Shown: one piece after another, positions 1 to 62,957 of the stretch
Layout of the letters: each line of letters opens with the position of its first letter
Numbering within the stretch: position 1 is the stretch's first letter
Origin: Eledone cirrhosa
Taxonomy: Eukaryota
Length of the DNA: 64,000 nt
Direction of reading: 5' to 3'
Assembly: GCA_964016885.1 (NCBI GenBank)
Contig: OZ024754.1
Span: 15,190,001-15,254,000, forward strand
Notes under the pieces: generated by a model
Seen by the model: only the letters and a program-made list of their open reading frames with translations
What the model was told of the DNA's origin: nothing
Databases searched by the model: none
Translations under genes and position numbers: made by a program

Positions 1-130
1 AGTCTATCGGAATATATGCAGGTGGGCACTTATAAATCATCATTGGATGCCCGACAATATCGATATAAAAGAACCCCTACCGATATTAACATTCAGCGAT
101 GGTACCCGTCAGTGTTAGAGTGATATATAT

Positions 131-640
131 AAATGGAAAAAATGAAACGAAATTTCATTTCTCACTCTTACTATGGATGTTACTTAAATATAAGTATGTA
201 TACGTACATATATATATGTATACAGACGTACAGTAGTATATATATATATATACATACATGCATATATATATGTACGTAAGGATTTACCGAACATTTATTA
301 TAATGCTCGGTTTGTTTGTAAACAAACAAACAGCCCGAATTAAGCGTATAGTGTTTAGCAACCATCGTTGCCCTTTTGTTCAACACTGACAAAGGAACGA
401 TGTACTACTTTCAAGCTTATTAGCTATCGTCAGCACCGTATACCTTCCAGGCCAGATGATTAAACGTCTGAAAGTATATACTTTCCTTATGCATATTAAC
501 GGCTGAGCAGCCTAATTTGCATATCGAGTGAGTTAATCGGCCGGGCGCACCGAAAACGATAAATGGAAAAAATGAAACGAAATTTCATTTCTGACTCTTA
601 GTACGGCTGTTACTTAAATATAAGTATGTATACGTACATA
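131..640 (-). mobile_element. Candidate retrozyme (non-coding ~430-bp tandem unit with minimal type I hammerhead ribozyme), copy 1
   Basis: AAATGGAAAAAATGAAACGAAATTTCATTTCT recurs at 131 and 561 (period 430). The unit holds an HHR at 397-439 and the octamer ATTTGCAT at 515-522. Homologous to 34123-34810 and 47123-47740. Confidence 0.75.
397..439 (-). ncRNA. Minimal type I hammerhead ribozyme
   Basis: Minus strand: acggug CUGACGA uagc uaauaa gcuu GAAA guag UA caucgu. 6-bp stem I and intact core; stem III palindrome carries one mutation relative to the 34619 copy. Confidence 0.75.
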
Positions 641-1048
641 CATATATGCTTTTCTTACTGCTTCCCCTCTCTCTGTATCTCTCACCTTCTTTTTACCCCA
701 TCTGCCAGTCACACACTCTCTCGGCTGGCCTCTTCCTCACACTTCCACTCACTCAGTCTCTGCTTCTCCCCCTCTCTCACTTCCTCCCGTTTGACCTATG
801 TGAAATCCTTTTCTCGCTCACATCTCACCCATGTCGGATGGTCTGTATCTCTCGTCCATGAATTTACCAAGCTTAAGCTTATAGATATCATGTACTTGTC
901 TCTTCCCATCTTTCCGTTGCAATACCATTAAGGTTGAAAGCAGCGATTCTTTGCTTAAACTTTAATCTATTATTTTAATAAATATATATATATAAATATA
1001 TATATATACATATATATATACATATATATATATAAATATATATATAAG

Positions 1049-1641: not shown

Positions 1642-1959
1642 AACCAAAACTGAATACTAACCAATACTATTACTAATTTTCACTTATTCCTAATTAAACT
1701 ATTTTTCACTGTGAACAATTTGTCAGCATTTTCTTTTCCGTTTACCAATATATATATATATATATTGTTATACTTGGGGAGGGTCATATTTGTGTAATAT
1801 TGCCAGAATTAATAACAGTACACACTCACTGTTTGGTTGGTTTTCGCTTTTCGCTTCTGTGTCTTTTATATCGGTAATTTAATTTATTCGGTCCTCAATG
1901 TTGCCATTGACTGACCAACGGTCAAAAACACAGATACAATATAGACACAAACACATATA

Positions 1960-2256
1960 TATAGTTTATCAAAGTTCTTTCGTTGCACATCTGCAACATC
2001 GTCAGTGGTGCTATTGTTTCCTCCTGCTGCATTGTATTTTCTACACCATCTTTATTTAGTCTGTTTATATATTTATTTATGTTTATTTTTTTTTGTCTTC
2101 TTTGCGCATGCGTTTGCGTGTGTGTATAGTGTTTTGTTTGATGTGTGTTCGTGATTGGGTGACTGTGTATTGGTTAATGTATTCTATCTTTACTAGTGTG
2201 TGTTTATATGTGTTTGTTGTTATTGTGCTTGTGTATGTATTTATTTATTTATCTAT

Positions 2257-2295
<39 letters not shown>

Positions 2296-5200
2296 CACTT
2301 CTCTTAGGTCAGTGTTGTTTGTTTGGGTGTTGTTATTCCATTCATTTTTTCTGTTTAGCCTTGGCCTTCTAAGTTCTATTTCACTGGCCTCTCTGATTTG
2401 CCTATCTGCTGGGTCATTTCTATGTTTAGATATTATTCTAATTTCTATGTTGTCTATGTTACCGTCGTGTTGTTGTCTGGCATGTTCTTATAGTACTGAA
2501 CCGTTTTTTCGTCCTTTTAGTTCCACCCAGTGTTGGTCTATCCTTTCACCTATACTACGAGCTGTCTCGCCTATGTATGTTGTTGTCATGTTTCTGCAAG
2601 TACCCTCTGTACATCTTATGCTATAGACTACGTTTCTAGTTTTACAGTTTATCTGGGAGTTTACCTTACATGTATTACAGTTCCTATTAGTACAGTGGGT
2701 TTTCTTAAAAGGGTAGGTTTTGCTGATCAGGGATTTTATGGTGGTTCCTGGCTTTTCTACCACCTTTATTTTTAAGTGGGTCTTTCTCAGGGCCTTTCTA
2801 CACTGTTTAGCTAATTTTCTTCCAGGGGTAGCGTCCACAAACATGACACTCTGGTATCTCTGGTTGTCGTAGCATGAGGTGGCTTTCCCTATCTTATGTC
2901 TAGCCCTATTTAAGCTATTCCATGATTTGCTCCTGTATAATGGGCAAATTCTTTTCATGTCCAGTTCTATGAGGGTCTTATACTTCTCCATGGCTCCTTC
3001 GTATACTCTGATTCTGTCTCTTTGGTTGTAGCCAGAGAACTGCATGCGGTTGATGAAGTGTTGGGTGTGTCTTTGCATTTCTGTTGGGTCGCACATGCGG
3101 GACACGTTCTTCATCACTCGTACCAAGTCTGCGATCAGAATATTAAAATTAGCACTTCTGGACATTGGTGAGTTTTTGAGTATCAGGTATTTGGAGGCCA
3201 TGGGTTTAGCATAGTGTGAGTGGAGAATTTGGGCTCTCTCGTCTATAGTGTTAATCCAGAGTTCCGTGTCTAATACAGGTAGTCTATTGTTAGGGTGTTT
3301 GTAAGGGTAGTCGATAGTTACAGTTATACTCTGGTGTATGGAATTAGCTATCTGCTGGATGCTTTCCATTGTGCTACGTTCTAAATCAAACTTGCTCTCT
3401 TGTGGAGATGTTCTTATAACTATATTGATATCGTCTACGTAACGAGAGTACATGATTAGGTCTATGGAGCTCTCATTAAGGAGATCTTTAAGTCTCCTTT
3501 CCCACCTACCATAAAAATGTTGGCAACGTCACCAGCTATGCTGACGCCAATGGCTGCTCCCTCATTTTGGGTGTAGATCTCGTTGAACTTGAATATGTGG
3601 CCCTTTAGGGTAGTTTTGATACTAGCCCCTATTGCATGTGCGACCATTTTTCTTACCTGATCTTTGTTTTGGGGTCCGTATAGCTTTGGTCCACCCAATC
3701 CACCTTCCCATGGGAGTCTTTTTAGCCATTGAGGTTATGGTGGGGGGTCTACCTCTTATGGGTCTACTGGGGCAGAAACGTCTAAGGTCATGGCTGTCTA
3801 GGTAGTCAGTGTCGTAGGTAAGTCTAAGTAGGCGGCCCAGTTCGTCTGTGTCGACGTCGCAGAACTCCACCTCACTCTCAATGATCATTTCCACACATTT
3901 TCCCACAGCAAAATCAATGTTAATGGATGGGTACTGTGATACCACATCCATGCTGCCTATTATGCAGTTGGATAGGTTCCTGTTTTTGTTGCACTCACTG
4001 ATTCTGCTGAGGAGGTCCTCTGTACTGTCACATACATCTGGGGAAATCTTGATTATGGGGCGTATAACCATTGAGAGGAAGTAGGAGATGCTGTAGTTGC
4101 TAGCTATATTTGCTCCGCATACAGGTCTCGTTGGTGGTCCTGTTGTCGGGTCGTCGACTGTCTTGTGGTCTTTGCGGAGCCCATACAAGGGTGGTATGCC
4201 ATTGTTAGACGCCTGCAAGTTGTTGGCAGTGCGTCTGCTTGGCTTTAGGATGTCGGTCCACATCATCATGTGAGTGTTAAGGATTTTCTCTCTCCCATCA
4301 TGTATTTGCTGTGCAATTTCGCTCGTGTTGGTGATGTGGGTTGCATAGCCTTGATGTAGTTCGGCATGCTATCTATTGACATCCTACCAGACTTATCCGT
4401 GGGTAGACATACTACCTCACCATCCCCTGTGCGCTGCTTGAGGCTAACCAAGCCTTCTACAGGTTTCCTCCCAAGTTGTTGGACCTCTGGTCTGCTCTGT
4501 CTCTTAGCAACCAGTCTACTATTTGTCTAATCTTATTTCTAGCTATGGTGAACTGTGCCTCTGTCTCGTCATCTATTTGTTGCGGTATGCAAACTCTTTT
4601 ATTAAAGGGTAACCTCGTAGGATAGATATTACCCATCTTATATGTTTTGTCAGCTGGGTTGAAGAATAGTTTCTCTAAGGGGTTGTCATTATATCTATCG
4701 TCATAGTTGTGTGTGTTGTTATTATTGTTATCATGGTGGTTGTTATTATTGTTATCATGGTGGTTGTTGTTGTTCCTATCATTAGCATTATTATTATTGT
4801 TATGATTGCTAGATGTATTGTTGCTGTGATTGTTAGATGTATTGTTGTTATGATTGCTAGATGTGTTGTTGCTGTGATTGTTAGATGTATTGTTGTTGTT
4901 TTCTTCACCGTTATTGTTGTTGTTACTGTTATTTCTACCATTGTGGTTGTTACTTTTATTATGTTTCTTGTTTTTGTTGTGTCTATCACTAATGTTGCTA
5001 CATGTATTATTTCTATTATTACCACTGTGGTTGTTATTCGTATTGTTACCGTTATTACTACTGTGGTCGCTGCTGCTGTGTCTGTAGTTAATGTTTCTAT
5101 TATTATTATTATTGTGTTGTTGTTGTTGTTCTGTCTATCGTTAATTTTATTACCATTATTACTATTTCTCACTCTCCTGCTATTGTTATTGTTATGACTA

Positions 5201-5870
5201 TTACTATTATAGCTGTTATTTCTATACTCAGAGTTATTGTTTATATTCCTACTACCGTTATTATTGTTGTTGTTGTCCGTATAGTTGTTGTTGTTGTTTA
5301 CTTTTGCATTCCAACGTATTTTTGTGAAACACTTTTCCAGCTCCATTTTGCACTCAATAGGGTTAATCTTTTTGTAGATGGCAAATTTTGGTGGTAGCTG
5401 CAGGATTTGTTGTTCTTGTTCACTGATTAAAGTGTTCCCATAAATATTTACTGTGTGGTCATTGGTAAATTCTTCCGGTAGTTTTACATCAGTCATACGG
5501 ATATTGTTGATGTTATCTGGGTATTTTTGAGAATATTCTATTTTTCTTTCCTCTAGTTTTTTTCTTATTCATCCATTCTAATTTCTTATTGAAATGCCTA
5601 TTGCATTCGTTTCGGGCGTATTTCGTTTCACGTCGGATGACGCTCAAGAAGTCATCCCTTTCGTTTGGTGTGGTGAGATTTCGGACTTCCTTACCGTTAT
5701 TGCGTTTCTGTCTGTAAAGTTCGTTGACTTTTGTGTATGTTGTTCTTTTCATATTAACTGTTATTGTGTGTTTTAGTCGTTCAGCTTGTGTTTTGTTCAA
5801 TAATAAATTATTTACTTGTTTTGATATGTTTGTTGTGTATATTTTGGAGGAAACTGTGTTTTAAGAAGCG
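1960..5870 (-). mobile_element. Penelope-like element, probably Naiad-type, degenerate (RT + GIY-YIG endonuclease)
   Basis: ORF pieces at 5513-5800, 4675-5496, 4266-4451, 3622-4269, 3462-3698 and 2488-3453. RT motifs KDHK..PTRPV, GSMDV.SQYPSI, QNEGAAIG, YSRYVDD, LPVLD. Linker CxxxxCxxC; GIY-YIG NVVYSIRC..YIGETARS. Frame continues past a TAA to ...LNRKNEW. Several frameshifts and stops. Clade call is from motif recollection. Confidence 0.85.
1962..2013 (-). ncRNA. HHR variant at the 3' end of the Naiad-like PLE
   Basis: Minus strand: uagcacca CUGACGA u GUUGCA gaug UGCAAC GAAA gaac UU ugauaaacua. Perfect 6-bp stem II with one extra U after the core; stem I is imperfect. Confidence 0.65.
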
Positions 5871-22853: not shown

Positions 22854-23166
22854 CAGTGTCATTTAAATAAAGGGTTGTTTTTCAATTATTTACATATTCA
22901 TTTGCATATTCACACATAAGTTTGAATAATCCCTAATATATTTCCACTATCCAGTGAATTTCCAACCGATAAGGTATGATTTTCATGGGTATGTCTCTAT
23001 TTATAAAACAAACTTTGTATTTTATCTGATGAAAGCGACCCAATGTTGTCTTCATTGCCCTTGAAATATATATAATAAAATAAATATGGTTTTATAAATA
23101 TAGTTTCCATTTATTTAATATCATTGATATAACTTTATCCTACACTTCAGCTGCTAACGCACCTTG

Positions 23167-23168
<2 letters not shown>
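20940..23168 (+). mobile_element. Nematis-like PLE, 5'-truncated and degenerate, with AT-rich 3' region and HHR
   Basis: ORFs 20949-21449 and 21527-21898 match the C-terminal half of the 42437-44647 ORF (RNIIW.APPFS, HRYHSIFNRHTIKLSYS, CNCR..CPL, VGATSTEFKSRWNNH). The 3' terminus resembles 46030-46145. Confidence 0.85.
23018..23082 (+). ncRNA. Minimal type I HHR of Nematis-like PLE
   Basis: uauuuuau CUGAUGA aag..caaug..cauug..cuu GAAA uauaua UA auaaaaua. Perfect 8-bp stem I and palindromic stem III. Predicted cleavage after 23074. Confidence 0.8.
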
Positions 23169-23228
<60 letters not shown>

Positions 23229-24307
23229 CAAGGTGCGTTAGCAGCTGAAGTGTAGGATAAAGTTATATCTGAATAAATACAAAGTGTGTATCCGAGACTG
23301 TGTCAGGTCACTCTTGAGTGCTACTGGTAATATGTGAACCAGTACAACCAGTCGCATGGTCGGGTCGTCCGCGACTAAACTGGAAACCCCACCAAAACTT
23401 ACTTGGTGAGGAGAGTGATTTTAGACACCCTGCAGGGCAAAAAACAAAACCTGACAAAGGGCGGGAGAACTCATAAGAGTCAACGGCCATCCAAAAATGT
23501 GTAAATATGTATATACACATGTACATATGGTCTGAAACCCTCCGGTGAGTTAGATAGGGGATGCCTGCCCCTGCATGCGAAGACTGGACTCGGCGGAGTG
23601 AGTGGAGGACGACAACATCGTCCCAACGGTCACGAAGGCGGCGACAGCAAGCGGTGTGGAGCGCTAGGGCACGGCAAGGCACTACAGACGTCGTGGCCAT
23701 CCACTGCAGCCAAGGAAGTCCCTGGTCGTGACGGTCCAACGTACCACCGGATTCTGGATTCTGCGACCGAGTGAGTGGGACCGTCACTGTGCACTGGCCC
23801 TCCCACTATAAACCTCTCCCGCACAGGTTTCTTCTTTGGCGTGCACTCCCAAAGCCCTGCGGTGATGGGCGAGAGGCGGAGATAACAGGTGGAGGTAAAC
23901 TCTGGGAGTTGCCAGTCTCAAACCCACACGAGGCATCAACAGCTGTCCCGAGCGACTCTGGTCTCTTCCTCTGCCCCCACTTTCTCTCTCACGCATACCC
24001 ACACACTTTCTCTTTCACGCACACACACTCTCTCTCACTCACAGACACACACTCTCTCCCTCACTCACACACACACACTCTCTCATTCACACTCACACAC
24101 GCACACACACTCGCTCTCTCTCTCTCACACTCACACACACTTTCTCTCTCTCTATCTCACATACACACACTCACACCCATTCACACACTCACACACTTAC
24201 ACACACATCACAATACAAACGGTAAACTCTCAACTTTCCTATACACAGCACCACACCAACACAACTTTTTATAAGTTTTTATTTTACCAGTCTTATCTAC
24301 TTTATCT

Positions 24308-27300
24308 TTGTCTCTCTATTCTCAATCTAACTTCCTCAGACATCTCTCTATTTGTCTCTCTATTCTCAATGTAACTTCCTCAGTCATCTCTCTATTTGTC
24401 TCTCTATTCTCAATCTCACTTCCTCAGTCATCTCTCTATTTGTCTCTCTATTCTCGATCTAACTTCCTCAGACATCTCTCTATTTGTCTCTCTATTCTCC
24501 ATCTAACTTCCTCAGACATCTCTCTATTTGTCTCTCTATTCTCCATCTAACTTCCTCAGACATCTCTCTATTTGTCTCTCTATTCTCAATCTCACTTCCT
24601 CAGCCATCTCTCTATTTGTCTCTCTATTCTCAATCTCACTTCCTCAGTCATCTCTCTATTTGTCTCTCTATTCTCAATCTAACTTCCTCAGTCATCTCTC
24701 TATTTGTCTCTCTATTCTCAATCTAACTTCCTCAGTCATCTCTCTATTTGTCTCTCTATTCTCAATCTCACTTCCTCAGTCATCTCTCTATTTGTCTCTC
24801 TATTCTCCATCTAACTTCCTCAGACATCTCTCTATTTGTCTCTCTATTCTCCATCTAACTTCCTCAGACATCTCTCTATTTGTCTCTCTATTCTCAATCT
24901 CACTTCCTCAGACATCTCTCTATTTGTCTCTCTATTCTCCATCTAACTTCCTCAGTCATCTCTCTATTTGTCTCTCTATTCTCCATCTAACTTCCTCAGT
25001 CATCTCTCTATTTGTCTCTCTATTCTCAATGTAACTTCCTCAGTCATCTCTCTATTTGTCTCTCTGTTTTCAATCTAATTTCCTCAGTCATCTCTCTATT
25101 ATCCATTTAACTTCCTCAGACATCTCTCTATTTGTCTCTCTATTCTCAATGTAACTTCCCCAGTCATCTCTCTATTTGTCTCTCTATTCTCAATCTAACT
25201 TCCTCAGACATCTCTCTATTTGTCTCTATTCTCCATTTCACTTCCTCAGCCATCTCTCTATTTGTCTCTCTATTCTCCATTTCACTTCCTCAGCCATCTC
25301 TCTATTCCCAATCTCACTTCCTCAGACATCTCTCTATTTGTCTCTCTATTCTCCATCTAACTTCCTCAGTCATCTCTCTATTTGTCTCTCTATTCTCAAT
25401 CTAACTTCCTCAGTCATCTCTCTATTTGTCTCTCTATTCTCCATCTAACTTCCTCAGTCATCTCTGTATTTGTCTCTCTATTCTCCATCTAACTTCCTCA
25501 GTCATCTCTCTATTTGTCTCTCTATTCTCAATGTAACTTCCTCAGACATCTCTCTATTTGTCTCTCTATTCTCAATCTAACTTCCTCAGTCATCTCTCTA
25601 TTTGTCTCTCTATTCTCCATTTCACTTCCTCAGCCATCTCTCTATTTGTCTCTCTATTCTCAATCTAACTTCCTCAGACATCTCTCTATTTGTCTCTCTA
25701 TACTCCATCTAACTTCCTCAGTAATCTCTCTATTTGTCTCTCTATTCTCAATCTAACTTCCTCAGACATCTCTCTATTTGTCTCTCTATTCTCAATCTAA
25801 CTTCCTCAGTCATCTCTCTATTTGTCTCTCTATTATCCATTTCACTTCCTCAGCCATCTCTCTATTTGTCTCTCTATTCCCAATCTAACTTCCTCAGACA
25901 TCTCTCTATTTGTCTCTCTATTCTCCATCTAACTTCCTCAGACATCTCTCTATTTGTCTCTCTATTCTCCATTTCTCTTCCTCAGCCATCTCTCTATTTG
26001 TCTCTCTATTCTCCATTTCACTTCCTCAGCCAACTCTCTATTTGTCTCTCTATTGCCAATCTCACTTCCTCAGACATCTCTCTATTTGTCTCTCTATTCT
26101 CCATCTAACTTCCTCAGTCATCTCTCTATTTGTCTCTCTATTCTCAATCTAACTTCCTCAGACATCTCTCTATTTGTCTCTCTATTCTCCATCTAACTTC
26201 CTCAGACATCTCTCTATTTGTCTCTCTATTCTCCATTTCACTTCCTCAGCCATCTCTCTATTTGTCTCTCTATTCTCCATTTCACTTCCTCAGCCATCTC
26301 TCTATTTGTCTCTCTATTCCCAATCTCACTTCCTCAGACATCTCTCTATTTGTCTCTCTATTCTCCATCTAACTTCCTCAGTCATCTCTCTATTTGTCTC
26401 TCTATTCTCAATCTAACTTCCTCAGACATCTCTCTATTTGTCTCTCTATTCTCAATCTAACTTCCTCAGACATCTCTCTATTTGTCTCTCTATTCTCCAT
26501 CTAACTTCCTCAGACATCTCTCTATTTGTCTCTCTATTCTCAATCTAACTTCCTCAGTCTTCTCACTATTTGTCTCTCTATTCTCAATGTAACTTCCCCA
26601 GTCATCTTCTCTATTTGTCTCTCTATTCTCAATCTAACTTCCTCAGTCATCTCTCTATTTGTCTCTCTATTCTCCATCTAACTTCCTCAGTCATCTCTCT
26701 ATTTGTCTCTCTATTCTCCATCTAACTTCCTCAGACATCTCTCTATTTGTCTCTCTATTCTCCATTTCTCTTCCTCAGCCATCTCTCTATTTGTCTCTCT
26801 ATTCTCCATTTCACTTCCTCAGCCAACTCTCTATTTGTCTCTCTATTGCCAATCTCACTTCCTCAGACATCTCTCTATTTGTCTCTCTATTCTCAATCTA
26901 ACTTCCTCAGTCATCTCTCTATTTGTCTCTCTATTCTCCATTTCACTTCCTCAGCCATCTCTCTATTTGTCTCTCTATTCTCAATCTAACTTCCTCAGAC
27001 ATCTCTCTATTTGTCTCTCTATACTCCATCTAACTTCCTCAGTAATCTCTCTATTTGTCTCTCTATTCTCAATCTAACTTCCTCAGACATCTCTCTATTT
27101 GTCTCTCTATTCTCAATCTAACTTCCTCAGTCATCTCTCTATTTGTCTCTCTATTCTCCATCTAACTTCCTCAGTCATCTCTCTATTTGTCTCTCTATTC
27201 TCAATCTAACTTCCTCAGACATCTCTCTATTTGTCTCTCTATTCTGCATCTAACTTCCTCAGACATCTCTCTATTTGTCTCTCTATTCTCCATTTCTCTT

Positions 27301-28218
27301 CCTCAGCCATCTCTCTATTTGTCTCTCTATTCTCCATTTCACTTCCTCAGCCAACTCTCTATTTGTCTCTCTATTCCCAATCTCACTTCCTCAGACATCT
27401 CTCTATTTGTCTCTCTATTCTCAATCTCACTTCCTCAGTCATCTCTCTATTCGTCTCTCTATTCTCAATCTAACTTCCTCAGACATCTCTCTATTTGTTT
27501 CTCTATTCTCCATCTAACTTCCTCAGACATCTCTCTATTTGTCTCTCTACTCTCCATCTAACTTCCTCAGACATCTCTCTATTTGTCTCTCTATTCTCCA
27601 TTTCACTTCCTCAGCCATCTCTCTATTTGTCTCTCTATTCTCCATTTCACTTCCTCAGCCATCTCTCTATTCCCAATCTCACTTCCTCAGACATCTCTCT
27701 ATTTGTCTCTCTATTCTCCATCTAACTTCCTCAGTCATCTCTCTATTTGTCTCTCTATTCTCAATCTCACTTCCTCAGACATCTCTCTATTTGTCTCTCT
27801 ATTCTCAATCTAACTTCCTCAGACATCTCTCTATTTGTCTCTCTATTCTCCATCTAACTTCCTCAGACATCTCTCTATTTGTCTCTCTATTCTCCATTTC
27901 ACTTCCTCAGCCATCTCTCTATTTGTCTCTCTATTCTCCATTTCACTTCCTCAGCCATCTCTCTATTTGTCTCTCTATTCCCAATCTCACTTCCTCAGAC
28001 ATCTCTCTATTTGTCTCTCTATTCTCCATCTAACTTCCTCAGTCATCTCTCTATTTGTCTCTCTATTCTCAATGTAACTTCCTCAGACATCTCTCTATTT
28101 GTCTCTCTATTCTCCATCTAACTTCCTCAGACATCTCTCTATTTGTCTCTCTATTCTCCATCTAACTTCCTCAGACATCTCTCTATTTGTCTCACTATTC
28201 TCAATCTAACTTCCTCAG
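24308..28218. repeat. 44-bp pyrimidine-rich minisatellite (~89 units)
   Basis: Unit TCTCTCTATTTGTCTCTCTATTCTC(A/C)AT(C/T)T(A/C)ACTTCCTCAG(A/T/C)CA, head-to-tail with no spacers. Confidence 0.97.
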
Positions 28219-34122: not shown

Positions 34123-34367
34123 AGTTGTAATAAAATGAAAACGAAATTTCATTTCTCACTCTTAGTACGGCACTTACTTAAATGTAAGTATGTATGTATA
34201 CGTACATACATATATGTATACAGACGTACAGTACACAAAAAGGTGACGTGGTTGCCTTAACACCGTGCGGCATAAATTCAGGCTGTTCAGTTTGTTTACA
34301 AACGAACAAAGCGGCGTTATAATAAGCGTCCGCTAAACTCATACGTACATATATGTATGTATACCTG

Positions 34368-34457
<90 letters not shown>

Positions 34458-34810
34458 TATACATACAGGTACACATACATATATGTACGCATCAGTTTAG
34501 CGGACGCTTATTATAGCGCCCGCTTTGTTCGTTTGTAAACAAACTGAACAGCCTGAATTTATGCCGCACGGTGTTAAGGCAACCACGTCACCTTTTTGTG
34601 TTCAACACTGACACAGGAACGATGTACTAGTTTCAAGCTTGTTAGCTATCATCAGCACCGTATACCCATCTGCCAGATAGTTGAACGTTCGAAAGTATAT
34701 ACTTTCCTTATGAAAATTAACGGCTGAGCAGCCTAATTTGCATATCGAGTGAGTTAAATCGGTCAGGCGCACCGAAAACGATGAGTTGTAATAAAATGAA
34801 AACGAAATTT
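34123..34810 (-). mobile_element. Candidate retrozyme copy 2 with an internal inversion around (TA)n
   Basis: Direct repeat gttgtaataaaatgaaaacgaaattt at 34123 and 34785. HHR at 34619-34661 and octamer at 34736-34743. Inverted arms at ~34235-34375 and ~34455-34600. Confidence 0.75.
34619..34661 (-). ncRNA. Minimal type I hammerhead ribozyme (best-conserved retrozyme copy)
   Basis: acggug CUGAUGA uagc uaacaa gcuu GAAA CUAG UA caucgu. Canonical core with palindromic ACUAGU stem III. Confidence 0.82.
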
Positions 34811-41660: not shown

Positions 41661-41700
<40 letters not shown>

Positions 41701-42560
41701 GATATTAAATAATGGAAACTATATTTATAAAACCATATTTATTTCATTATATATATTTCAGGGATATCATATTAACAATATGTTATGCCTTCCTCAGACA
41801 AAATACAATATAGACAGTTTTATAGATAAATAGATTTGACATACCGTTCAACATCGACTTGTATTTGTAAAAGTTGATTTGGCAGTGAAAAATTGTAAAC
41901 AGAAAGAAAGAAAGAGAGAAAGAAGGAAAGAAAGAAAGAAAACGAAGAAAAAGAAGAAAAAGAAGAAATGCATGCAACAAAATAGAGAGATGGAAAGATA
42001 GATAAAGAGAAGAACTTCATGTAAAGAAACAGAGAGAGATATATATAGAGAGAGGAAATAGATAGAGATAGATATATATAGAGAAAAGTAGGTAGTTGAA
42101 CATCCGTTGAATGAACGTATCAATGATACATTTATTTATTTATTTATTTATTTAGCTCTAGTATTAATGTAAGGGAGATATATGTGGTTAGGAAAGAAAC
42201 CAGCCGTTGTATAGAGAGAAAAATGAAAAGTAACCAGACATAGGCGAGGCAGAATTTAAAAACCCTATGTTTTAATGTAGAAATATTAGTTCGTATAAAA
42301 ACCAGGCACTATAATGTAAATATCAGTATTCCTGAATGAGACACGTATCCATAATGTGTGAAAAGTAATGATCTTATGTCTAGTTTTAAAAATTCATATG
42401 TTTATATGAAAACTACAAACATCGATGTGAATTTACGTGATCAACTCTGCAAACCCCTATTTCACACGGAGAACATTCTCATTGTGCTATAAAAATTTAA
42501 GTATACATATATGTGTATATATACACATATATATAGAGTCTATATTAATTTTAACAATAC

Positions 42561-44647
42561 AATCTAATATAAATAAAAATGTCTCGGACTTAAACAAAGT
42601 TTTCAAATCTAAAAGAAATCCACCCCCTAACAAACTTTTATCTGACTTTGAAAACGATATAATTTCTATCATACAAGGGGTCAAATTCAAGAGAAACTTC
42701 AAAGGCCAGGAATATCTGAAAGGCATTAAGGATAATATTGAGAGCTTAGAGAAAACTGAGAAGATCTTGGTGAAATCTGACAAGACCAACAACCTCTATG
42801 GAGTGCAGAAAGACATGTATAATGGCCTCATACTGAAGGAACTGAGGAAAAAGTACAAGGTAGCAGATAAGGCCGAGCTTGAGAAAATGAATGTCGAAGC
42901 ATCTTGTATAATGCACGAGTTGGAAATTGAGAACAGAACACAACCTTTCGTGCCCAGGAAACCGAAGATCAATATGAAAGATCACAAAAGGAATTTTGAA
43001 AATGACTTGCCAGTTAGATTGATCGCACCATCAAAATCGGACCTGGGCAAATTAAGCAAAAACATTCTTGACAGGGTGATACAGCAAATTAAAAACTTGG
43101 ATTGTTTACCTAACCTGAGCTTGTGGAAGGGAACTGGAGAGGTTGTTGAGTGGTTTAAACAAATTAAATATAACAATAATAATAAGTTTATTCAACTTGA
43201 TATTGCTAACTATTATTCTTCTATTACCCCTAATCTACTAAATAAGGCACTAAATTACGCATTCAAACGTACAGACCTAACTAGCAATGAAATGCACATT
43301 ATATTATCGGCTAGGAAAACATTGATAGAATTTAATGACCAACTATGGACCAGAGCAGATAGAGATAGCAATTTTGACATTACTATGGGATCATCCGACT
43401 CAGCTCAGGTAACTGACCTTGTGGGCTTATTTTTAATCAATTCGCTACATAGGAAAATACCTGGTACTACCGGAGGTTTATATAGAGATGACATGCTTTT
43501 ACTTATTGATAATAATAACTCTGAATTAAATAGAAAAAGAAAACAAATTACACAATTTTTTAATTACTTTAATCTAAAAATAGAAATTGAGAGCAACCAT
43601 AGAATAGTCAATTTCCTAGATATAACATTAAATCTCAACACATGTCTTCACTATCCTTTTCACAAGTTGAATGAAAACTTAAACTATGTCAGCTTTAACT
43701 CTAACCACCCCAGATCTGTCAAAAACACTATAGTAAACTCTGTTCAAAAACGTATCTCTAGAATCTCGTCTAATAGAAAGATTTTCGACGAAAAAGCCCA
43801 GTACTACAATGAAGCGTTAGCTAGAGCAGGATATAGTGATAAGATTATGTACATAGATAATGATAGACAAACTAAACAAAATAACAACTATTTTAATTAC
43901 GGCCACAACCTTAACAACTATAATAGAAAGCATTACAATAATCCCAAAAGCCAAAAAAGAAATAGAACTAGGAACATAATATGGTTTGCCCCCCCCCCCC
44001 CTTTCTCACTAAACATTAAAACCCACATCGCTAAACTATTTTTTAAAGCTCTTGATAATCGTTTCCCTAGAACACATAGGTATCACTCAATTTTCAATAG
44101 ACATACTATAAAATTAACCTACTCATCCACCAAAAATTTAGCACAAAATATTAATAGAATAAATAATAGGAACTTAAAACCTAGCGATAATAGCATAAAT
44201 AATATACAAGTTAACAAATGTAACTGTAGAGATAGATCTAAATGTCCGTTAAATAACAACTGCTTAGTTAAAAATATAATATACAACTGTAATGTTAAAA
44301 CGGACTCTAATTCTTTTAACTACGTCGGTTCCACATCGACGGAATTTAAACTTCGCTATAATAACCACAAGAATTCTTTCACAGATCCAAGCAAAAAATC
44401 TTCAACAGCACTATCAGGCGTACTCTGGCAACTTAGGCAAGATAACGTTAGATATTCGACGGCTTGGAATATAGTCTCAAGAGGGATTCCTTTTAATTCA
44501 TCTTCTGAGTCATGTGACCTCTGCGCGGAGGAGATATTCTTTATACTAAAATCTAAAAATTCCCTTAATCTACGGACAAATTTATTCAGTTGCTGCAAAC
44601 ATAGATTGAACTCAACTTTTAAATATAAATTTAAATTTAAAATGTAG
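42561..44647 (+). CDS. PLE reverse transcriptase + GIY-YIG endonuclease (5'-truncated, otherwise open)
   Basis: KSDKT, KDHK..F...PVRLI.PSKS, QLDIANYYSSI, FDITMGSSDSA, GLYRDD, NFLDITL, SNHP, CNCR..CPL..C, IIY.C.V..YVGST..FK.R..H. The first ~41 aa of the ORF-track call come from the inverted repeat. Confidence 0.9.
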
Positions 44648-46030
44648 TATATTTAGTTTGATTTATAATTATTTGGGAAACTAGCCGATAAATCTTTCGA
44701 TTTCTTCTTTTTATTCTTCTTTTTATTTTTATTTTTATTTAAACATTCTTCATGAAAAATTAAACTACCCTAAAAGTTGATGCTCCAAATATTTCGAATA
44801 AACGTTACACTAGATAAACTTCTATATTAAATATAAGAACATATGTAGACAAAATGGGCATCCTAAACTTTTTGAAATGATTTCTGCTAGACGCGATTTG
44901 GTAAATAATTTTTAGCTTTATCTGTTTTCGACTCTGATGCTTATAATGAACTTGGCAATATATTGTCAATTAATTTTGAAGGGTTGATCTTTGTGGTCGA
45001 TTTGCGTGGCATATTATGTTTCTATTATGTTTTTATTTTTATTATTTTAATATTTTTAAATATTTTTTTTAATATTTTTAATATTTTTATTTTTAATATG
45101 TAATATTTTTTAGTTTTCTATTTTATTTATTTGTTTATTATTATTATATTTATTTTTATTATTATTATTATTATTACTATTATTATTTTTTGTTTTTGTT
45201 TCTGATATTTTTTATTAATATATTGAAATCTGTTCTCTATTTCTGCTTGATAGATAATCATGTAGAGTAAAGACAAGAATAGTATTGTTAAAATTAATAT
45301 AGACTCTATATATATGTGTATATATACACATATATGTATACTTAAATTTTTATAGCACAATGAGAATGTTCTCCGTGTGAAATAGGGGTTTTCAGAGTTG
45401 ATCACGTAAATTCACATCGATGTTTGTAGTTATCATATAAACATATGAATTTTTAAAACTAGACATAAGATCATTACTTTTCACACATTATGGATACGTG
45501 TCTCATTCAGGAATACTGATATTTACATTATAGTGCCTGGTTTTTATACGAACTAATATTTCTACATTAAAACATAGGGTTTTTAAATTCTGCCTCGCCT
45601 ATGTCTGGTTACTTTTCATTTTTCTCTCTATACAACGGCTGGTTTCTTTCCTAACCACATATATCTCCCTTACATTAATACTAGAGCTAAATAAATAAAT
45701 AAATAAATAAATGTATCATTGATACGTTCATTCAACGGATGTTCAACTACCTACTTTTCTCTATATATATCTATCTCTATCTATTTCCTCTCTCTATATA
45801 TATCTCTCTCTGTTTCTTTACATGAAGTTCTTCTCTTTATCTATCTTTCCATCTCTCTATTTTGTTGCATGCATTTCTTCTTTTTCTTCTTTTTCTTCGT
45901 TTTCTTTCTTTCTTTCCTTCTTTCTCTCTTTCTTTCTTTCTGTTTACAATTTTTCACTGCCAAATCAACTTTTTCAAATACAAGTCGATGTTGAACGGTA
46001 TGTCAAATCTATTTATCTATAAAACTGTCT

Positions 46031-46107
46031 ATATTGTATTTTGTCTGAGGAAGGCATAACATATTGTTAATATGATATCCCTGAAATATATATAATGAAA
46101 TAAATAT
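46031..46107 (+). ncRNA. Minimal type I HHR in PLE pLTR (mirror copy ~41735-41811, minus strand)
   Basis: auauuguauuuugu CUGAGGA agg..cauauu guu aauaug..ccu GAAA uauaua UA augaaauaaauau. Predicted cleavage after 46094. Confidence 0.82.
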
Positions 46108-46465
46108 GGTTTTATAAATATAGTTTCCATTTATTTAATATCGTAAATATAATCCAAATACTTGTTGAGTGCTTTTATATCAGTTATAAATATTTACTAG
46201 TTGTAACCCAACAATTTAAATATAACTTTACATATATATATATATATATATATATTTCGTTTCTGAATTTCTTTAGCAAGATTTTTTATCTGAAACGTGT
46301 GTTGAAACCGATATTGTTATACTTTGGGAGGGTCATGTTGCCAATAAGAAACATACGTACCAGTTGCTTTCACTCCAATTTATTATAAATTTAATTTATA
46401 ATAAATTGGAGTGAAAGCAACTGGTGCGTGTGTTTCTTATTGGCAACATGACCCTCCCAAAGTAT

Positions 46466-47122: not shown

Positions 47123-47740
47123 TTGAACAAAAGGGCAACGATGGTTGCCGAACATTGTGCGGCTAATAATTCGGGCTGTTTGTTTACAAAAGAACCGAGC
47201 ATTATAATAAATGTTCGGTAAACCCATACGTACATAGATATATATATGTGTGCATGTATGTATGTATATACATACTACTGTACGTCTGTATATATATATG
47301 CATGTACATATAATACTTATATTTAAATATCAGCCGTACTAAGAGTGAGAAATGAAATTTCATTTTTTTTTTCTTTTATCGTTTTCGGTACGCCCGGCCG
47401 ACTAACTCACTCGATATGCAAATTAGGCTGCTCAGCCGTTAATATGCATAAGGAAAGTATATACTTTCAAACGTTCAATCAACTGACAGGAAGGTATACG
47501 GTGTTGATGACAGCTAATAAGCTAGAAACCAGTTCATTGTTCCTTTGTCAGTGTTGAACAAAAGGGCAACGATGGTTGCCGAACACTGTGCGGCTAATAA
47601 TTCGGGCTGCTTGTTTACAAACAAACCGAGCATTATAAACCCATACGTACCACACGTACATATATAAACCCATAAGTACATATATTATATGTGTGCATGT
47701 ACTTATATATATATATACTACTGTAGGTCTGTATACATAT
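47123..47740 (+). mobile_element. Candidate retrozyme copy 3 (~1.4 units)
   Basis: ttgaacaaaagggcaacgatggttgccgaac at 47123 and 47554 (period 431). Octamer ATGCAAAT at 47416-47423. Mutated HHR at 47498-47540 (acggug UUGAUGA cagc uaauaa gcua GAAA ccag UU cauugu). Confidence 0.75.
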
Positions 47741-47757
47741 ATGTATGTACGTATATA

Positions 47758-47853
<96 letters not shown>

Positions 47854-49339: not shown

Positions 49340-49358
49340 AAGGCTGTGCTTTACTTAC

Positions 49359-49794
49359 CAGAAGACACTTCAAATTCGTGGACGTAGTAAGGACATTTGT
49401 TGGTGACCATTGTTTTTTCCGGTGTTCTTTTCCAACAGCTGTAACCATCCCAGGTTGGAGGACATGCTGGTTTATTATCTGCCATTGTTTGTGAAATGTT
49501 CTCTTCCTCTTGCTGATCATAACAGCATTGTAAAGCTCCTTGACAACACGATTTCCATCGTTGGCAATGTTCCTTATTTTTTAATGCATTACAGAACTGC
49601 GCCATAATCGTACCATTTTCTATATCCGGTGAGGCTGTATAGTTGTCCCTTATGATGGTCAATTCCTTGTGATATGTTGTCTTTAGAATATCCGAATGGG
49701 GGTATATGAAGACGTAACACATGGTACATGTTACCAGTTTGAATAATCCGAGGGGATAATAACCGGTTCGATCTCTACAAATTATCGGCGTCAT
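49359..49794 (-). CDS. Exon encoding the extracellular domain of a class B (secretin/calcitonin-receptor-like) GPCR
   Basis: Hormone-receptor domain signature CPPTWDGYSCW..TP...V...CP.Y preceded by Cys-rich C..CY and RWKSCC..A..CC. Ends at a perfect donor G|GTAAGT (49359/49358). The 5' boundary is uncertain (in-frame TAA at 49834-49836). Confidence 0.8.
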
Positions 49795-50760
49795 TGGTAT
49801 AGTTGTGTTCTCCCGTTTTAGTTTTGATTGATTTTATCAAACTTTCTCTCCTCTAATTTTTTTTTTCTCGGGTGAAACAAACACACATATGCAAATCAAA
49901 ACCAGAAAGACAATGATAACTGCGGCAACAATAACAACTAACAGAGATCGACAACAAATAACACAACACCACCAACAACAACAACACCAACAACAGCAGC
50001 AATGACCGTACAACAGCAACAGAAAACACAACAGAAAATAATAATAAATAACAGTAATCACAATAACAACAACAACAAGTAACAACAACAATAACAACAG
50101 CAACACAACACCAACAATAACTGCAACGATAATACAAAAATAGCAACGATGACAATCACAGCAACAAAGGAAATAACAACAGTATCAACAACAACAAGTA
50201 CAACAACAACAATAGCATTCACAACATCAATAACAACAAGTACAACAATAACAACAAATCACAATAGCATGAACAATAACAAATACAACAATAACAACAA
50301 TAACAACACCAACAGCTAAGCAAAAGCACGACCAAGAACAACACTAAATAAACCCAATAATTAAAGAAGTAATAATGATAACACCAAGAAGGAGAAAAAG
50401 AAGAAGAAGAAGAAGAAGAAGAAGAAGAAGAAGAAGAAGAAGAAGAAGAAGAAGAAGAAGAAGAAGAAGAAGAAGAGCAACAACAACAACAACAACAATA
50501 AGAGAAGCTGCAACAACTACAACAACTACAACAACAGACGCAGCGACAATAACAACAACCGCAACCCTAACAACAACAATACGTATAACTAATTTACTAT
50601 AAAGTTCAAAACTAGTTGACGTTTAAGACTATTTTCTCCATTACGTCCTTTCTTGAAATTCGTACTGGTTCTTAAAGACATTTGCCGCAACGTATAGAGT
50701 CACTTCTCACACGACAACAACAACAACAACGACGACAACAACAACAACAACAACAAAAAC

Positions 50761-59405: not shown

Positions 59406-62400
59406 AATCGAAAATGCAACTGGAGTCTTATTTAAAAATATATATATATATATATATATTTGGTTCCTTTACCGGTTTCGCAGTTCTTCTGCTTTTCAAA
59501 AGTAGAGTTGAGGTGGAGGGTCTGTGGTTTTTCTCACATCTGGTTGGTCTTAGGATTTTACTTGTTTTATATGGAAAAAGTGGCTCGCAACGCCAGCTTT
59601 TTAGAGAAGTAATTTGATTGGTTGGTCAATAAGTATAATAAATTTCGCGCCAGTTCGCGTTACAAAGTTCTTCAAACAAGGGGGGGGGGGGCTCATATAT
59701 GAGTGAAGTTTCGTTGGTTGATGCAGTCACGTGAATAAGCACATCAGCTTTCGCGCCAGTTTGTTTGAATTTCTTTTTACTTCAAAAAAGGGGCCCACGA
59801 AGGCTTTTTTTTTTTATAAATGTAATTTGATTTGTTATAAATGAAATTATGGCTGTCACGTGAACAAGTTCATTAAATTTAGCGCCCGTATTTGGGAATT
59901 TACTTTGTAGCCTTTTAGAGAATTTTATGACAAACAAAAGATAATGGTCAAGAGAAATGGGATGGTAGAATTGTTCTGGTTCAGTGAATATGACTGGTTC
60001 CCTGGGGTGTCAGAATTCAGACTTTCTATTGAAATAAAGAAAGTAGAGATATGTATCTTTATTTGTGTGCTTGTGTGTGTGTGTGTATAGGAAGATGATT
60101 CTATTAGTAGAAATGGGGGAGGGAGTTGTGTGTATGTTTATATGGGTGTTATGTGTGTGGGGGGAGTATATTAAGATGGAGAGAATATATTTTGTGTGTG
60201 TATGTTTGTAGGAAAGTGAATCTATTAGTAGAAATGGGGGAGGGAGTTGTGTGTGTGGGGGGGGGGGGTATGTGTGTGTGTGTATGGGTGTTATGTGTGT
60301 ATGGTTAGCATATTAAGATAAAGAGAATATATATTTTGTGTGTGTATGTGTGTAGGAAAATGATTCCGTTAGTAGAAATATTTTTGAATGAACATATTTT
60401 CCTTATTTATTCGTATTTGTTCTGTTGTATTATCAGCGCAAACGTATGTTAAGGTTTATTTAGTTCGGGTTTTTATTTTCTAAAGTAGGTGTTATGTGTG
60501 TGTGTGTGTGTGTCTGTTTGGATGGTTAGCATGTTATGGTGTTGACATAATGTATATTAAACCATATTTAATGCAGGTCTATATTTTTGAATAAACTTTT
60601 TTTCCTTATTTATTCGTATTTGTTCTGTTGTATTATCAGCGCAAACGTATGTTAAGGTTTATTTAGTTCGGGTTTTCATTGTCTAAAGTAGAAGGTGTTA
60701 TGTGTGTGTGTGTGTGTGTGTGTGTGTCTGTTTGGATGGTTAGCATGTTATGGTGTTGACATAATGTATATTAAACCATATTTAATGCAGGTCTATATTT
60801 TTGAATAAACATATTTTTTTTATTTATTCGTATTTGTTCTGTTGTATTATCAGCGCAAACGTATGTTAAGGTTTATTTAGTTCGGGTTTTCATTGTCTAA
60901 AGTAGAAGGTGTTATGTGTGTGTGTGTGTGTGTCTGTCTGTTTGGATGGATGGTTAGCATGTTATGGTGTTGACATAATGTATATTAAACCATATTTAAT
61001 GCAGGTCTATATTTTTGAATAAACATATTTTTCTTATTTATTCGTATTTGTTCTGTGGTATTGTCAGCGCAAAGGTAAAATGGGAAGACTTGGAATTTGG
61101 GTGTCTTATTACTTGCGCATATGTCTAGATGTGAGCTTAGTGGTATCTGTCTCGTGGTTGAATCTCGTAATTGTTGGCGATGGACTGTCATTCTGTTTCT
61201 GAGTGTGAGTTTAGTTTGTCCTATATAATCTTCATTGCATCCTTTACATTTAATGGCATAAACTAGATTTTTTGATGAACAAGTGAAGTGATTTTTTACA
61301 GCAAAATTTTTTCCTGATTGAAATATATACGTGTTGCCTTCAATGAGGTGAGTGCAGGTTCCACAATTAGAGCGACCACGTATTTTGACAGTTGGTTGTG
61401 GGTTTGTGGTAGGTAATTTGGCATTGGTGAGTAATGTTTTCAGTGATTTCGGTTGTCTTTTGCTTTTGATTATTTTGTGTGTTTCAAGAGCTTTTTTCAT
61501 TCTTGGGTCTTGTTTCAATAGTGTTGTAAGCTTCCGCATTTCTTGGGTTCTGTGTTGAGATATATAATAGAATATTGGACGTAAATTGAATTTGTTTGTT
61601 TTCGTAATTCATCAATGCCTATTCCTTTAGCCCTTTCTATTCCATTATTTATTAGTAATGGTGGGTACTGTCTTTCGAGTAGAATTTCCTTTAATTCTTC
61701 TTTCGTGTTTCATAATTGGAGACAATTGTGCAAATTCTTCTTGCAAATTCTTGTGTGCAAATTCTTGTGTGCAAATTCTTCGTGTATTTTGGATGGTTGG
61801 AGGTGAATAGCAGGTATTGTTTGGAATCTGTTGGTTTGTAGTGTATGTCAGTTTCAATATTTGTGTCTTTTTTTAAGATTAAGGTGTCCAGAAATGGGAG
61901 TTGATCTTGGCTGTATTCCATTGTGAATTGGATGTGGTTATTGATGCCGTTAATTACATTTTTGAAATCATTCAGCTGGTCGAGTGTGTGGGACCAAAGA
62001 ATGAGACAATCATCCAAGTAGCGTTTCCAATTCTCTGATAAATATTTGTGGAAGTTCAATCCGTATTTTGATTTGGACTGTTCATATATCTGGACTTCTA
62101 AGTATGTCATGACTAAGTTGGCATAAGTTGGAGCGGCTTTTGTAAAAGCTTCATCACCGAGGGATTAAAATTTATCTTACAGAACAAGTTTTTGATTTCG
62201 ATGGCAGTACTTACAAGCAAATATCGGGGACTGCGATGGGTACAAAAGCCGCTCCAACTTAGGCCAATTCACTGAACCAGAACAATTCTACCATCCTATT
62301 TCTCTTGACCATTATCTTTTGTTTGTCATAAAATTCTCTAAAAGGCTACAAAATAAATTCCAAAATACGGGCGCGAAATTTAATGAACTTGTTCACGTGA

Positions 62401-62957
62401 CTGCAATAATTTCATTTATAACAAATCAAATTACATTTATAAAAAAAAAAAAGCCTTCGTGAGCCCCTTTTTTGAAGTAAAAAGAAATTCAAACAAACTG
62501 GCGCGAAAGCTGATGTGCATATTCACGTGACTGCATCAACCAACCAAACTTCACTCATATATGAAAAAAACAACCTGAGCCCCCCCCCCCCCCCCCCCCC
62601 GCCCCTTGTTTGAAGAACTTTGTAACGCGAACTGGCGCGAAATTTATTATACTTATTGACCAACTAATCAAATTACTTCTCTAAAAACCTGGCGTTTCAA
62701 GCCACTTTTTTCCATATAAAACAAGTAACATTCTAAGACCAACCAGATGTGAGAAAAACCACAGACCCTCCACCTCAACTTTACTTTTGAAAAGCAGAAG
62801 AACTGCGAAATCGGTAAAGGAATCAAATATATATATATATATATATATATTTTAAATAAGACTCCAGTTGCATTTTCGATTTCATCTTTTTTTCTTTATA
62901 CTTTCACTCGTGTAGGACACCTCGGTTATTTTTCATTTTATTAAAAAACCTCACTTT
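59400..62957 (-). mobile_element. Neptune-like Penelope element, 5'-truncated and degenerate, with ~600-bp inverted pLTRs
   Basis: ORFs 61691-62110 (WKRYLDDC, LPFLD, HYKPTD, SNHP) and 60985-61539 (GRSNCGTC, NLVYAIKCKGC..YIGQT..RMTVH). Arms ~59400-59988 and ~62267-62888. U3-A8 HHR at 59466-59503 (-) and 62784-62820 (+). Confidence 0.88.
60378..61073. repeat. ~200-bp tandem amplification (3-4 units) of the PLE ORF end and 3' UTR
   Basis: atatttttgaat..tatttattcgtatttgttctg..atcagcgcaaa recurs at ~60378, 60581, 60795 and 61009. Confidence 0.85.

Follow-up and report, generated by a model that had tools for sequence, protein, structure and literature searches.

The window, the whole 64,000-nucleotide stretch of Eledone cirrhosa DNA analysed here, holds three dispersed copies of a short tandem repeat, which are 86-92% identical outside their TA-rich part and were rightly recognized as related in the original prediction. 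Copy A (129..648, minus strand) is a single arm of 1.21 units of 430 nt, in which 129-218 is repeated at 559-648; it is 5′-truncated at 648, and its 3′ end at 129 falls on the distal (long) one of two sites described below and is followed by a short TA tract. The tail of this copy (129..196, minus strand), about 59 nt, runs from the proximal 3′ site at about 188 to the distal one at 129. Copy C (47123..47762, plus strand) is also a single arm, of 1.45 units of 431 nt, which ends near the proximal 3′ site and belongs to an older subfamily. Both periods are those originally given, and so is the size of copy A, for which about 1.2-1.4 units had been claimed; copy C exceeds that range, and the ends first placed at 131-640 and 47123-47740 had to be shifted to the positions above. 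Copy B (34123..34810, minus strand) comprises about 1.06 units, ends 3′ at the distal site and is nearly identical to the youngest subfamily; its expansion by inversion was correctly called and consists of an internal inverted duplication of about 200 nt (34235-34437, plus strand; 97% identical). A frame scan agreed that there is no credible ORF, the longest ATG frames being 61 aa in copy A and, in a unit of the B type, one of 95 aa that crosses the TA run. Both palindromes named in the original prediction are present, the second in altered form in copy C.

Each locus carries a hammerhead motif, as had been proposed, though a single one only, and that of copy B (34598..34690, minus strand) is the sole consensus-intact version among the three and matches the family majority. 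Its core lies at 34655-34649, helix I pairs 34661-34656 with 34624-34619 and continues into an extension, and the predicted cut follows 34625, in agreement with the site suggested earlier. Helix I thus has 6 bp and a long extension, helix II has 4 bp with a U-U at its base, and helix III, of 1-2 bp, is palindromic, with one pair closing a palindromic loop. The motif was first described as a minimal hammerhead; by the definition given in PMC4209133, in which the min-HHR of Penelope-like elements (PLEs) has a helix II of 7-8 bp, a helix I of 4-5 bp and a bulge after A9, its sequence is instead that of a canonical type I hammerhead. In copy A (394..439, minus strand; core 433-427, GAAA 412-409, predicted cut 403|402), a G for C at 408 has abolished the helix-III palindrome, and the computed helix-III self-duplex is +2.2 kcal/mol versus -4.8 kcal/mol for copy B. 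The hammerhead of copy C (47498..47543, plus strand) is mutated: core position 3 is a U, the palindrome is broken and the cut site reads UU. Since copies A, B and C have one ribozyme each, excision of a monomer through two cuts is beyond them, and they represent end products, single-ribozyme insertions. In the older subfamily (L126, L133, L144 and window 47504-47534, copy C included) the cut site is likewise UU and helix II has a C at its base, paired with G in the member L144.

A 75-pair structure was evaluated on 52 copies, with 97.4% of cells paired. Two-sided changes occurred in 92 cells versus 39 in shuffles, a value above all 500 shuffles although obtained from related copies, while the number of covarying pairs did not rise above the shuffles (145/500). 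Seven pairs change on both sides: five, varying across subfamilies, belong to one hairpin of 9 bp (34500..34523 in copy B, minus strand), and the other two to a long-range helix and to helix I, one each. Within the ribozyme, covariation amounts to one pair (G-U to U-G in 4 of the 52 copies), and helix II showed none among the 52. The expected covariation across copies was therefore found at the level of cells and mostly outside the ribozyme, and not in the number of pairs. Circular folds of four real units gave z scores of -5.9 to -9.0 (30 shuffles), partly inflated by the TA hairpin, and the unit is predicted to form a highly self-paired circle with conserved structure, as retrozymes do.

A high-copy family of hammerhead repeats

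We searched the genome (3.0 Gb, 1,796 contigs) with a hammerhead core pattern in which helix II was left free, which carried out the copy-number check suggested in the original prediction and returned 28,554 matches versus 5 for a reversed-pattern control. These matches are not due to chance, given that control, and all 100 core-pattern matches listed belong to the retrozyme family. A 23-nt pattern gave 4,692 matches and a 21-nt pattern upstream of it 9,067; the former undercounts the family because abundant subfamilies diverge in helix I. The loci studied in detail were the best DNA matches together with the first-listed places on the largest contig, a non-random sample of the genome. The non-coding unit is 420-470 nt long, complete units measured 425-541 nt with the surplus contributed by the TA run, and arrays reach up to 9 units (L181). 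GC content in the non-repeat part is 40%, below the retrozyme limit of 50%, and the organization as dispersed dimers to multimers of short tandem units is that of metazoan non-LTR retrozymes (150-450 bp). Of 100 segments, selected in part by the motif itself, 94 have an intact hammerhead core. Searched alone, a copy locus scored 18.6 bits with the Rfam model HH9, under the gathering score of 52, and over the whole window no hammerhead appeared among the 150 matches listed out of 247 with Rfam, which were mostly TA-hairpin noise; the family thus escapes Rfam thresholds.

A U6-like box in the repeat unit

The unit carries a 12-nt U6-like box, TATGCAAATTAG, followed by a TATA box. In copy A the pair occupies 470..523 (minus strand; box 523-512, TATA 480-475, the latter inside the GAAAGTATATACTTTC palindrome), in copy B 34691..34744 (minus strand; box 34744-34733, TATA 34701-34696) and in copy C 47415..47468 (plus strand; box 47415-47426, TATA 47458-47463). 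The same box is found at -77 to -79, with a TATA at -30, at three U6 loci, U6atac and RNase MRP of this genome (L151-L153, L201, L209), the genes on which the promoter matrix was trained. With this five-gene matrix the unit scores 20.4 and the training sites 18.2-21.7, for a motif chosen after the repeat had been seen, and none of 123,866 background positions came within 1 bit. The box is conserved at 97.6% versus 87.7% over all columns, while its hairpin partner changes between subfamilies. A match to Pol II snRNA promoters was considered and rejected, as the U1, U2 and U5 genes (L166-L235) do not have the box; other U6/U6atac matches (L157/L158/L160, L164, L165) and seven U6atac-like copies are also without it.

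Two features depart from a U6-type gene. The spacing from box to TATA is 43 nt versus 47-49 nt in the genes, that is 4-6 nt shorter, and this spacing is described as tightly kept in insects (PMC1761439). Internal runs of at least four T, which would stop Pol III, occur in 152 of 155 segments, and runs of at least six in 80. Taking the -30 position of the TATA in U6, U6atac and MRP as a guide, we place the predicted start of copy B at 34671, 47 nt ahead of the cut, where a purine follows a pyrimidine at the 5′ arm of helix I. A combination of octamer and TATA can also be used by Pol II. Judging by these sequence features, we give box and TATA roughly an even chance of forming a working promoter.

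The small-RNA promoters of this genome follow two layouts, which are useful for native small-RNA expression cassettes. Pol III genes combine an octamer-like box at -77 with a TATA at -30; in the Pol II snRNA genes, TCAGT near -57 is preceded by an AT-rich box near -88 and followed by a TATA-like box at -30.

Insertion ends and resident Penelope-like elements

Insertion ends were scored in 154 segments, after seven edge segments had been dropped. Numbered from the cut, the 3′ ends cluster at about 218 and about 274, at sites roughly 59 nt apart: 63 are proximal and 62 distal, 16 fall within the TA hairpin, 12 at other places and a single one close to the cut. The 5′ ends are scattered over the whole unit, and 83 of the 154 arms are longer than one unit. 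The earlier view that inserts start at different points therefore holds for their 5′ ends and fails for their 3′ ends, at which reverse transcription begins. Freely permuted 3′ breakpoints are ruled out by the 125 of 154 ends at the two fixed sites, and insertion ends at the ribozyme cut by the single end found there. Where two arms stand head to head, one has a proximal and the other a distal end, in 33 of 35 cases from the first 91 loci (p = 2.8e-6 for the 27 fully covered pairs of this set) and in 11 of 11 from 32 further loci, 44 of 46 in total. Among the motif-called ends, 119 of 127 abut (TA)n, which hides target duplications; at L029, a non-TA target, a duplication of 11-12 nt is visible.

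Two fixed internal 3′ ends bounding a tail, 5′ truncation and an inverted arm make up a PLE-type signature. The PLE protein PAc nicks and extends both strands, its two internal start sites delimiting the tail (PMC11167929), and PLE insertions carry a one-sided tail (PMC8557442); two internal start sites plus a tail are the signature published in these two papers. By analogy, the short/long geometry of the retrozyme is what would be expected from PAc and from one-sided PLE tails.

The window itself contains two candidate helpers. The first is a young PLE at 41700..46232 (plus strand) with a 738-aa open frame (42431-44647), an inverted arm of 853 nt that is 100% identical, its own hammerhead at 46045, and a short left and a long right end, both in (TA)n. 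Its motifs (DKT, CxCX5C, CxxC, CxH) assign it to the Hydra clade as described in PMC8557442. All 40 scored matches of its pLTR are 100% identical over 196 nt, so the family was probably active recently. The second, at 1750..5568 (minus strand), is broken; it has a CX4CxxC linker of the Neptune/Nematis type, a hammerhead core near 2003 and a short end in (TA)n. Pfam returned no family for the Hydra-clade ORF or the Neptune-type pieces, and the clade assignments are by motif. Short and long ends are paired in 6 of 7 Hydra-clade cases and in 7 of 7 two-ended Neptune-type loci, with three ends at two further Neptune-type loci. The (TA)n target and the end pairing are thus common to the retrozyme and both PLE families, which agrees with the suggestion that PLEs of the window could be helpers.

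As to which of the two might serve, comparison of the unit and its tail with three PLE ends gave no significant likeness (best p 0.06) and otherwise only TA-rich matches. Naming a helper by tail likeness was accordingly given up for the Hydra and Neptune-type ends, with a TTCCAT-like end motif kept as a lead only. The 59-nt tail resembles the 60-nt form of the Neptune type, again only a lead, and one fusion points to Hydra. At L236:3797-7446, one arm joins the 3′ half of a Hydra element, with its short end, to 1.7 retrozyme units; the other arm has a retrozyme long end, and no retrozyme remainder lies beyond the PLE. The simplest reading of this locus is a template-switch chimera, and a nested PLE insertion with a deletion is possible. 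We rejected L241 as a hybrid two-armed insertion, since its flank is PLE coding DNA and the retrozyme is therefore nested in a Hydra copy; L237, L238, L239 and L240 were set aside as mere adjacency through (TA)n, which is uninformative.

Several observations concern the PLEs themselves. At L241:3773-6896 the junction is present twice, inverted, as if a loaded PLE copy had been re-copied. At L202 and L208, promoterless U6atac-like copies adjoin Hydra PLE ends in TA tracts. A third PLE remnant in the window (59784-62472) has a GIY-YIG match at 60988-61608 between 206-nt inverted arms, and its 3′ end is tandemly repeated with a period of about 180 nt.

Template and proposed mechanism

Of 33 multi-unit loci, 19 have units that group together as a clade, versus a mean of 0.34 and a maximum of 3 in shuffles; the count is 9 of 17 for two-armed loci and was 9 of 19 in a smaller first set. 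The other 14 of the 33 do not form clades, and mean distances within a locus are often at least as large as the distance to the nearest other locus. Young arrays are near-identical internally and have locus-fixed rare variants (four in L182, four in L184, nine in L183). Within the B subfamily, A>G changes on the sense strand of the internal TA run outnumber T>C by 46 to 8 over 32 loci, some of them related and thus non-independent, while the flanking target TA tracts are near-symmetric (55 versus 44) and no A>G excess exists outside the TA run (5 versus 6). In such an AU-rich duplex, these marks probably represent ADAR editing. Locus-specific A>G patterns recur throughout L063, L065, L067, L082, L182 and L184-L186, in every unit or almost every one. 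Within-locus homogeneity together with these repeated marks led us to favour a single-unit template, and one edited unit copied repeatedly fits a circle best, the circle itself being predicted. The homogeneity and the shared edits could also be obtained from a homogeneous source array or by local duplication. A dimeric-circle template was considered for L182, where unit lengths are 484, 502, 484 and 494 and one site alternates, weakly hinting at a period of two units, and was rejected as L181 disagrees.

We consider it likely that this high-copy, non-coding hammerhead repeat is inserted by a PLE enzyme from one RNA unit, probably a circle. For dependence on a PLE as such the genomic evidence is strong, and we regard it as highly probable; fixed 3′ ends and arm pairing support this dependence, and the canonical type I hammerhead the retrozyme identity first proposed. 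In the mechanism that we envisage, arrays with at least two ribozymes would be transcribed, possibly from the U6-like box and TATA with a start 5′ of helix I, a step to which we give about even odds. The hammerheads would then cleave, probably after pairing into dimers by way of their palindromic helix III, and the released monomer would be closed by a host ligase, which seems reasonably likely; A-to-I editing of the AU hairpin in this RNA is a quite likely further step. A PLE protein would nick a (TA)n or AT-rich target on both strands, with about 11-12 nt between the nicks; the two 3′ ends would prime at the two internal sites, one each, and copying would run back across the ribozyme junction over a length of 0.3 to more than 5 units. 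Finally, the two cDNAs would be joined 5′ to 5′, or a single arm would be kept.

The strongest competing explanation retains PLE-driven insertion and takes an uncut linear multimer as template, with the hammerhead as a passenger or acting late and the circle unneeded. Variable 5′ ends with fixed 3′ ends do not argue for a circle, because a linear multimer gives the same, and long arrays such as the nine units of L181 exist as sources. For the one PLE tested in vitro, PAc, ribozyme mutants are reported to insert normally, with unprocessed RNA as the main substrate (PMC11167929), and only 1 of the 154 3′ ends lies near the cut. Moreover, slow cutting is to be expected from the weak helix III and from the U-U that helix II has at its base, traits of the two axolotl motifs, each of which is described as cleaving well only as a dimer (PMC7229834), and eight of nine Xenopus dimers failed to cleave (bioRxiv 10.64898/2026.07.22.740005). 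A linear multimer, however, would be edited in each unit independently, whereas three units of L067 have one and the same A>G pattern of 11 sites, and locus-specific patterns are common to both arms; the locus-fixed rare variants of young arrays speak against it too, and 5′ truncation would shorten arrays in each generation with nothing to rebuild them. On balance we think this explanation unlikely.

A much weaker case can be made for the unit as the orphan pseudo-LTR (pLTR) of an autonomous PLE whose coding part was lost by 5′ truncation. Xenopus retrozymes are homologous to pLTRs (bioRxiv 10.64898/2026.07.22.740005), PLE coding fragments occur at 20 of 149 loci, and the original prediction itself feared that the copies might turn out to be pLTRs on PLE coding DNA. 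Among these 149 of many thousands of loci, the repeat is never the terminal repeat of an ORF, and no RT plus GIY-YIG ORF is bounded by it. Arms consist of unit after unit with no coding DNA upstream, and six loci that we extended represent nesting, (TA)n adjacency or, once, a fusion with the PLE downstream of the unit, each PLE having its own different ribozyme and end. The resident PLE hammerheads have a long helix II, unlike the canonical one of the retrozyme. An orphan pLTR is in our view very improbable. Least probable of all, to the point of being barely credible, is a DNA-level minisatellite that inherited its ribozyme-like motif and owes its spread to recombination, to slippage or to rolling-circle DNA transposition: tandem copies can arise by local duplication and the length of the TA run does change freely between neighbouring units, but dispersed copies with fixed 3′ and ragged 5′ ends, arm pairing, a target duplication and strand-biased A>G changes indicate an RNA intermediate and target priming.

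Relation to known retrozymes

By its sequence, the family is a member of the metazoan non-LTR retrozymes, as it fits every testable feature of theirs. With those of coral, Mytilus mussel and axolotl (Cervera and de la Pena 2020, PMC7229834) it shares short non-coding tandem units of low GC, a canonical type I hammerhead, a highly paired predicted circle and co-resident PLEs, and the helix III of axolotl Amex1 (1 bp plus palindromic loop) and the U-U helix II base of Amex2 are both present here. It differs from them in its 420-470-nt unit with an expanding AU hairpin, and its circle is so far a prediction. Vertebrate retrozymes (Li, Clavereau, Pollet 2026, bioRxiv 10.64898/2026.07.22.740005) are likewise non-autonomous, PLE-linked and present as monomers to multimers; there the link is pLTR homology, which is absent here for three PLE ends. 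That report describes 35 genomes, no mollusc among them, and does not seem to include an analysis of insertion ends. Mobilization by PLEs was otherwise proposed from co-occurrence (PMC7229834, PMC7761336), whereas here the insertion footprint has been measured.

With the insertions of Poseidon PAc (PMC11167929) and of the Hydra and Neptune clades (PMC8557442), the retrozyme shares two internal starts, a tail at one end, priming on both strands, AT-rich or (TA)n targets and an inverted, 5′-truncated arm. It differs from these PLEs in having no ORF, in its 59-nt tail (30-40 nt in the published elements, 44/60 and about 87-90 nt in the resident ones), in the 2-7 nt of microhomology to the target at which its 3′ starts lie and in that the rule of one short and one long end has been counted here. 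This rule (44/46, and common to two PLE clades) predicts a different start site for each target strand.

Retrozymes seem promoterless according to a review (PMC7761336), while here a U6-like box and TATA are conserved. Internal promoters, of snRNA type and of Pol III type respectively, are described for newt satellite 2 and the schistosome hammerhead satellites (cited in PMC2220036); the candidate here differs in being the genome's own U6/U6atac/MRP box, at altered spacing, and offers a testable answer to how retrozyme RNAs become transcribed. A more complete scenario, for which we have only tentative confidence, would be a self-sufficient retrozyme with its own U6-type box and TATA in every unit, transcribed from the 5′ arm of the ribozyme, a ribozyme-trimmed leader, an ADAR-edited circle, a dimeric Penelope enzyme that copies this circle from both nicks, an obligatory division of one strand per start site (proximal or distal) and occasional template switching between the PLE's own RNA and the circle. 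If true, an internal promoter would for the first time be connected with the life cycle of a retrozyme in an invertebrate of this group, and the PLE tail and inverted pLTR would be explained by a general rule.

We found no description of an octopus or other cephalopod retrozyme in the literature, although supplements or repeat libraries may list the family; the word 'ribozyme' is absent from an Octopus vulgaris repeat paper, and a giant squid paper reports 235 Rfam hammerhead matches, unanalysed. The present data address two published proposals that were without direct evidence, namely that PLEs move retrozymes via RNA circles and how the one-sided tail and inverted arm of PLEs originate. Tens of thousands of insertions, short and readable, are available for this purpose, along with a young subfamily, and the window itself holds young helper candidates; we suggest no host function for the family.

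Other features of the window

An exon on the minus strand, at 49354-49833, contains the hormone-receptor domain (Pfam HRM) typical of a class-B GPCR, and a crude motif scan revealed no further exon. The segment 12100-17277 (minus strand) has two long open frames of 1,167 and 530 aa, stop to stop, and presumably represents an L1/Tx1-like element, judging by its motifs. A 44-bp minisatellite of about 90 copies occupies 24169-28100. Finally, near-perfect palindromes of 117-130 nt lie at 23133-23262 and 46334-46450, the first of which has a (TA)n centre.
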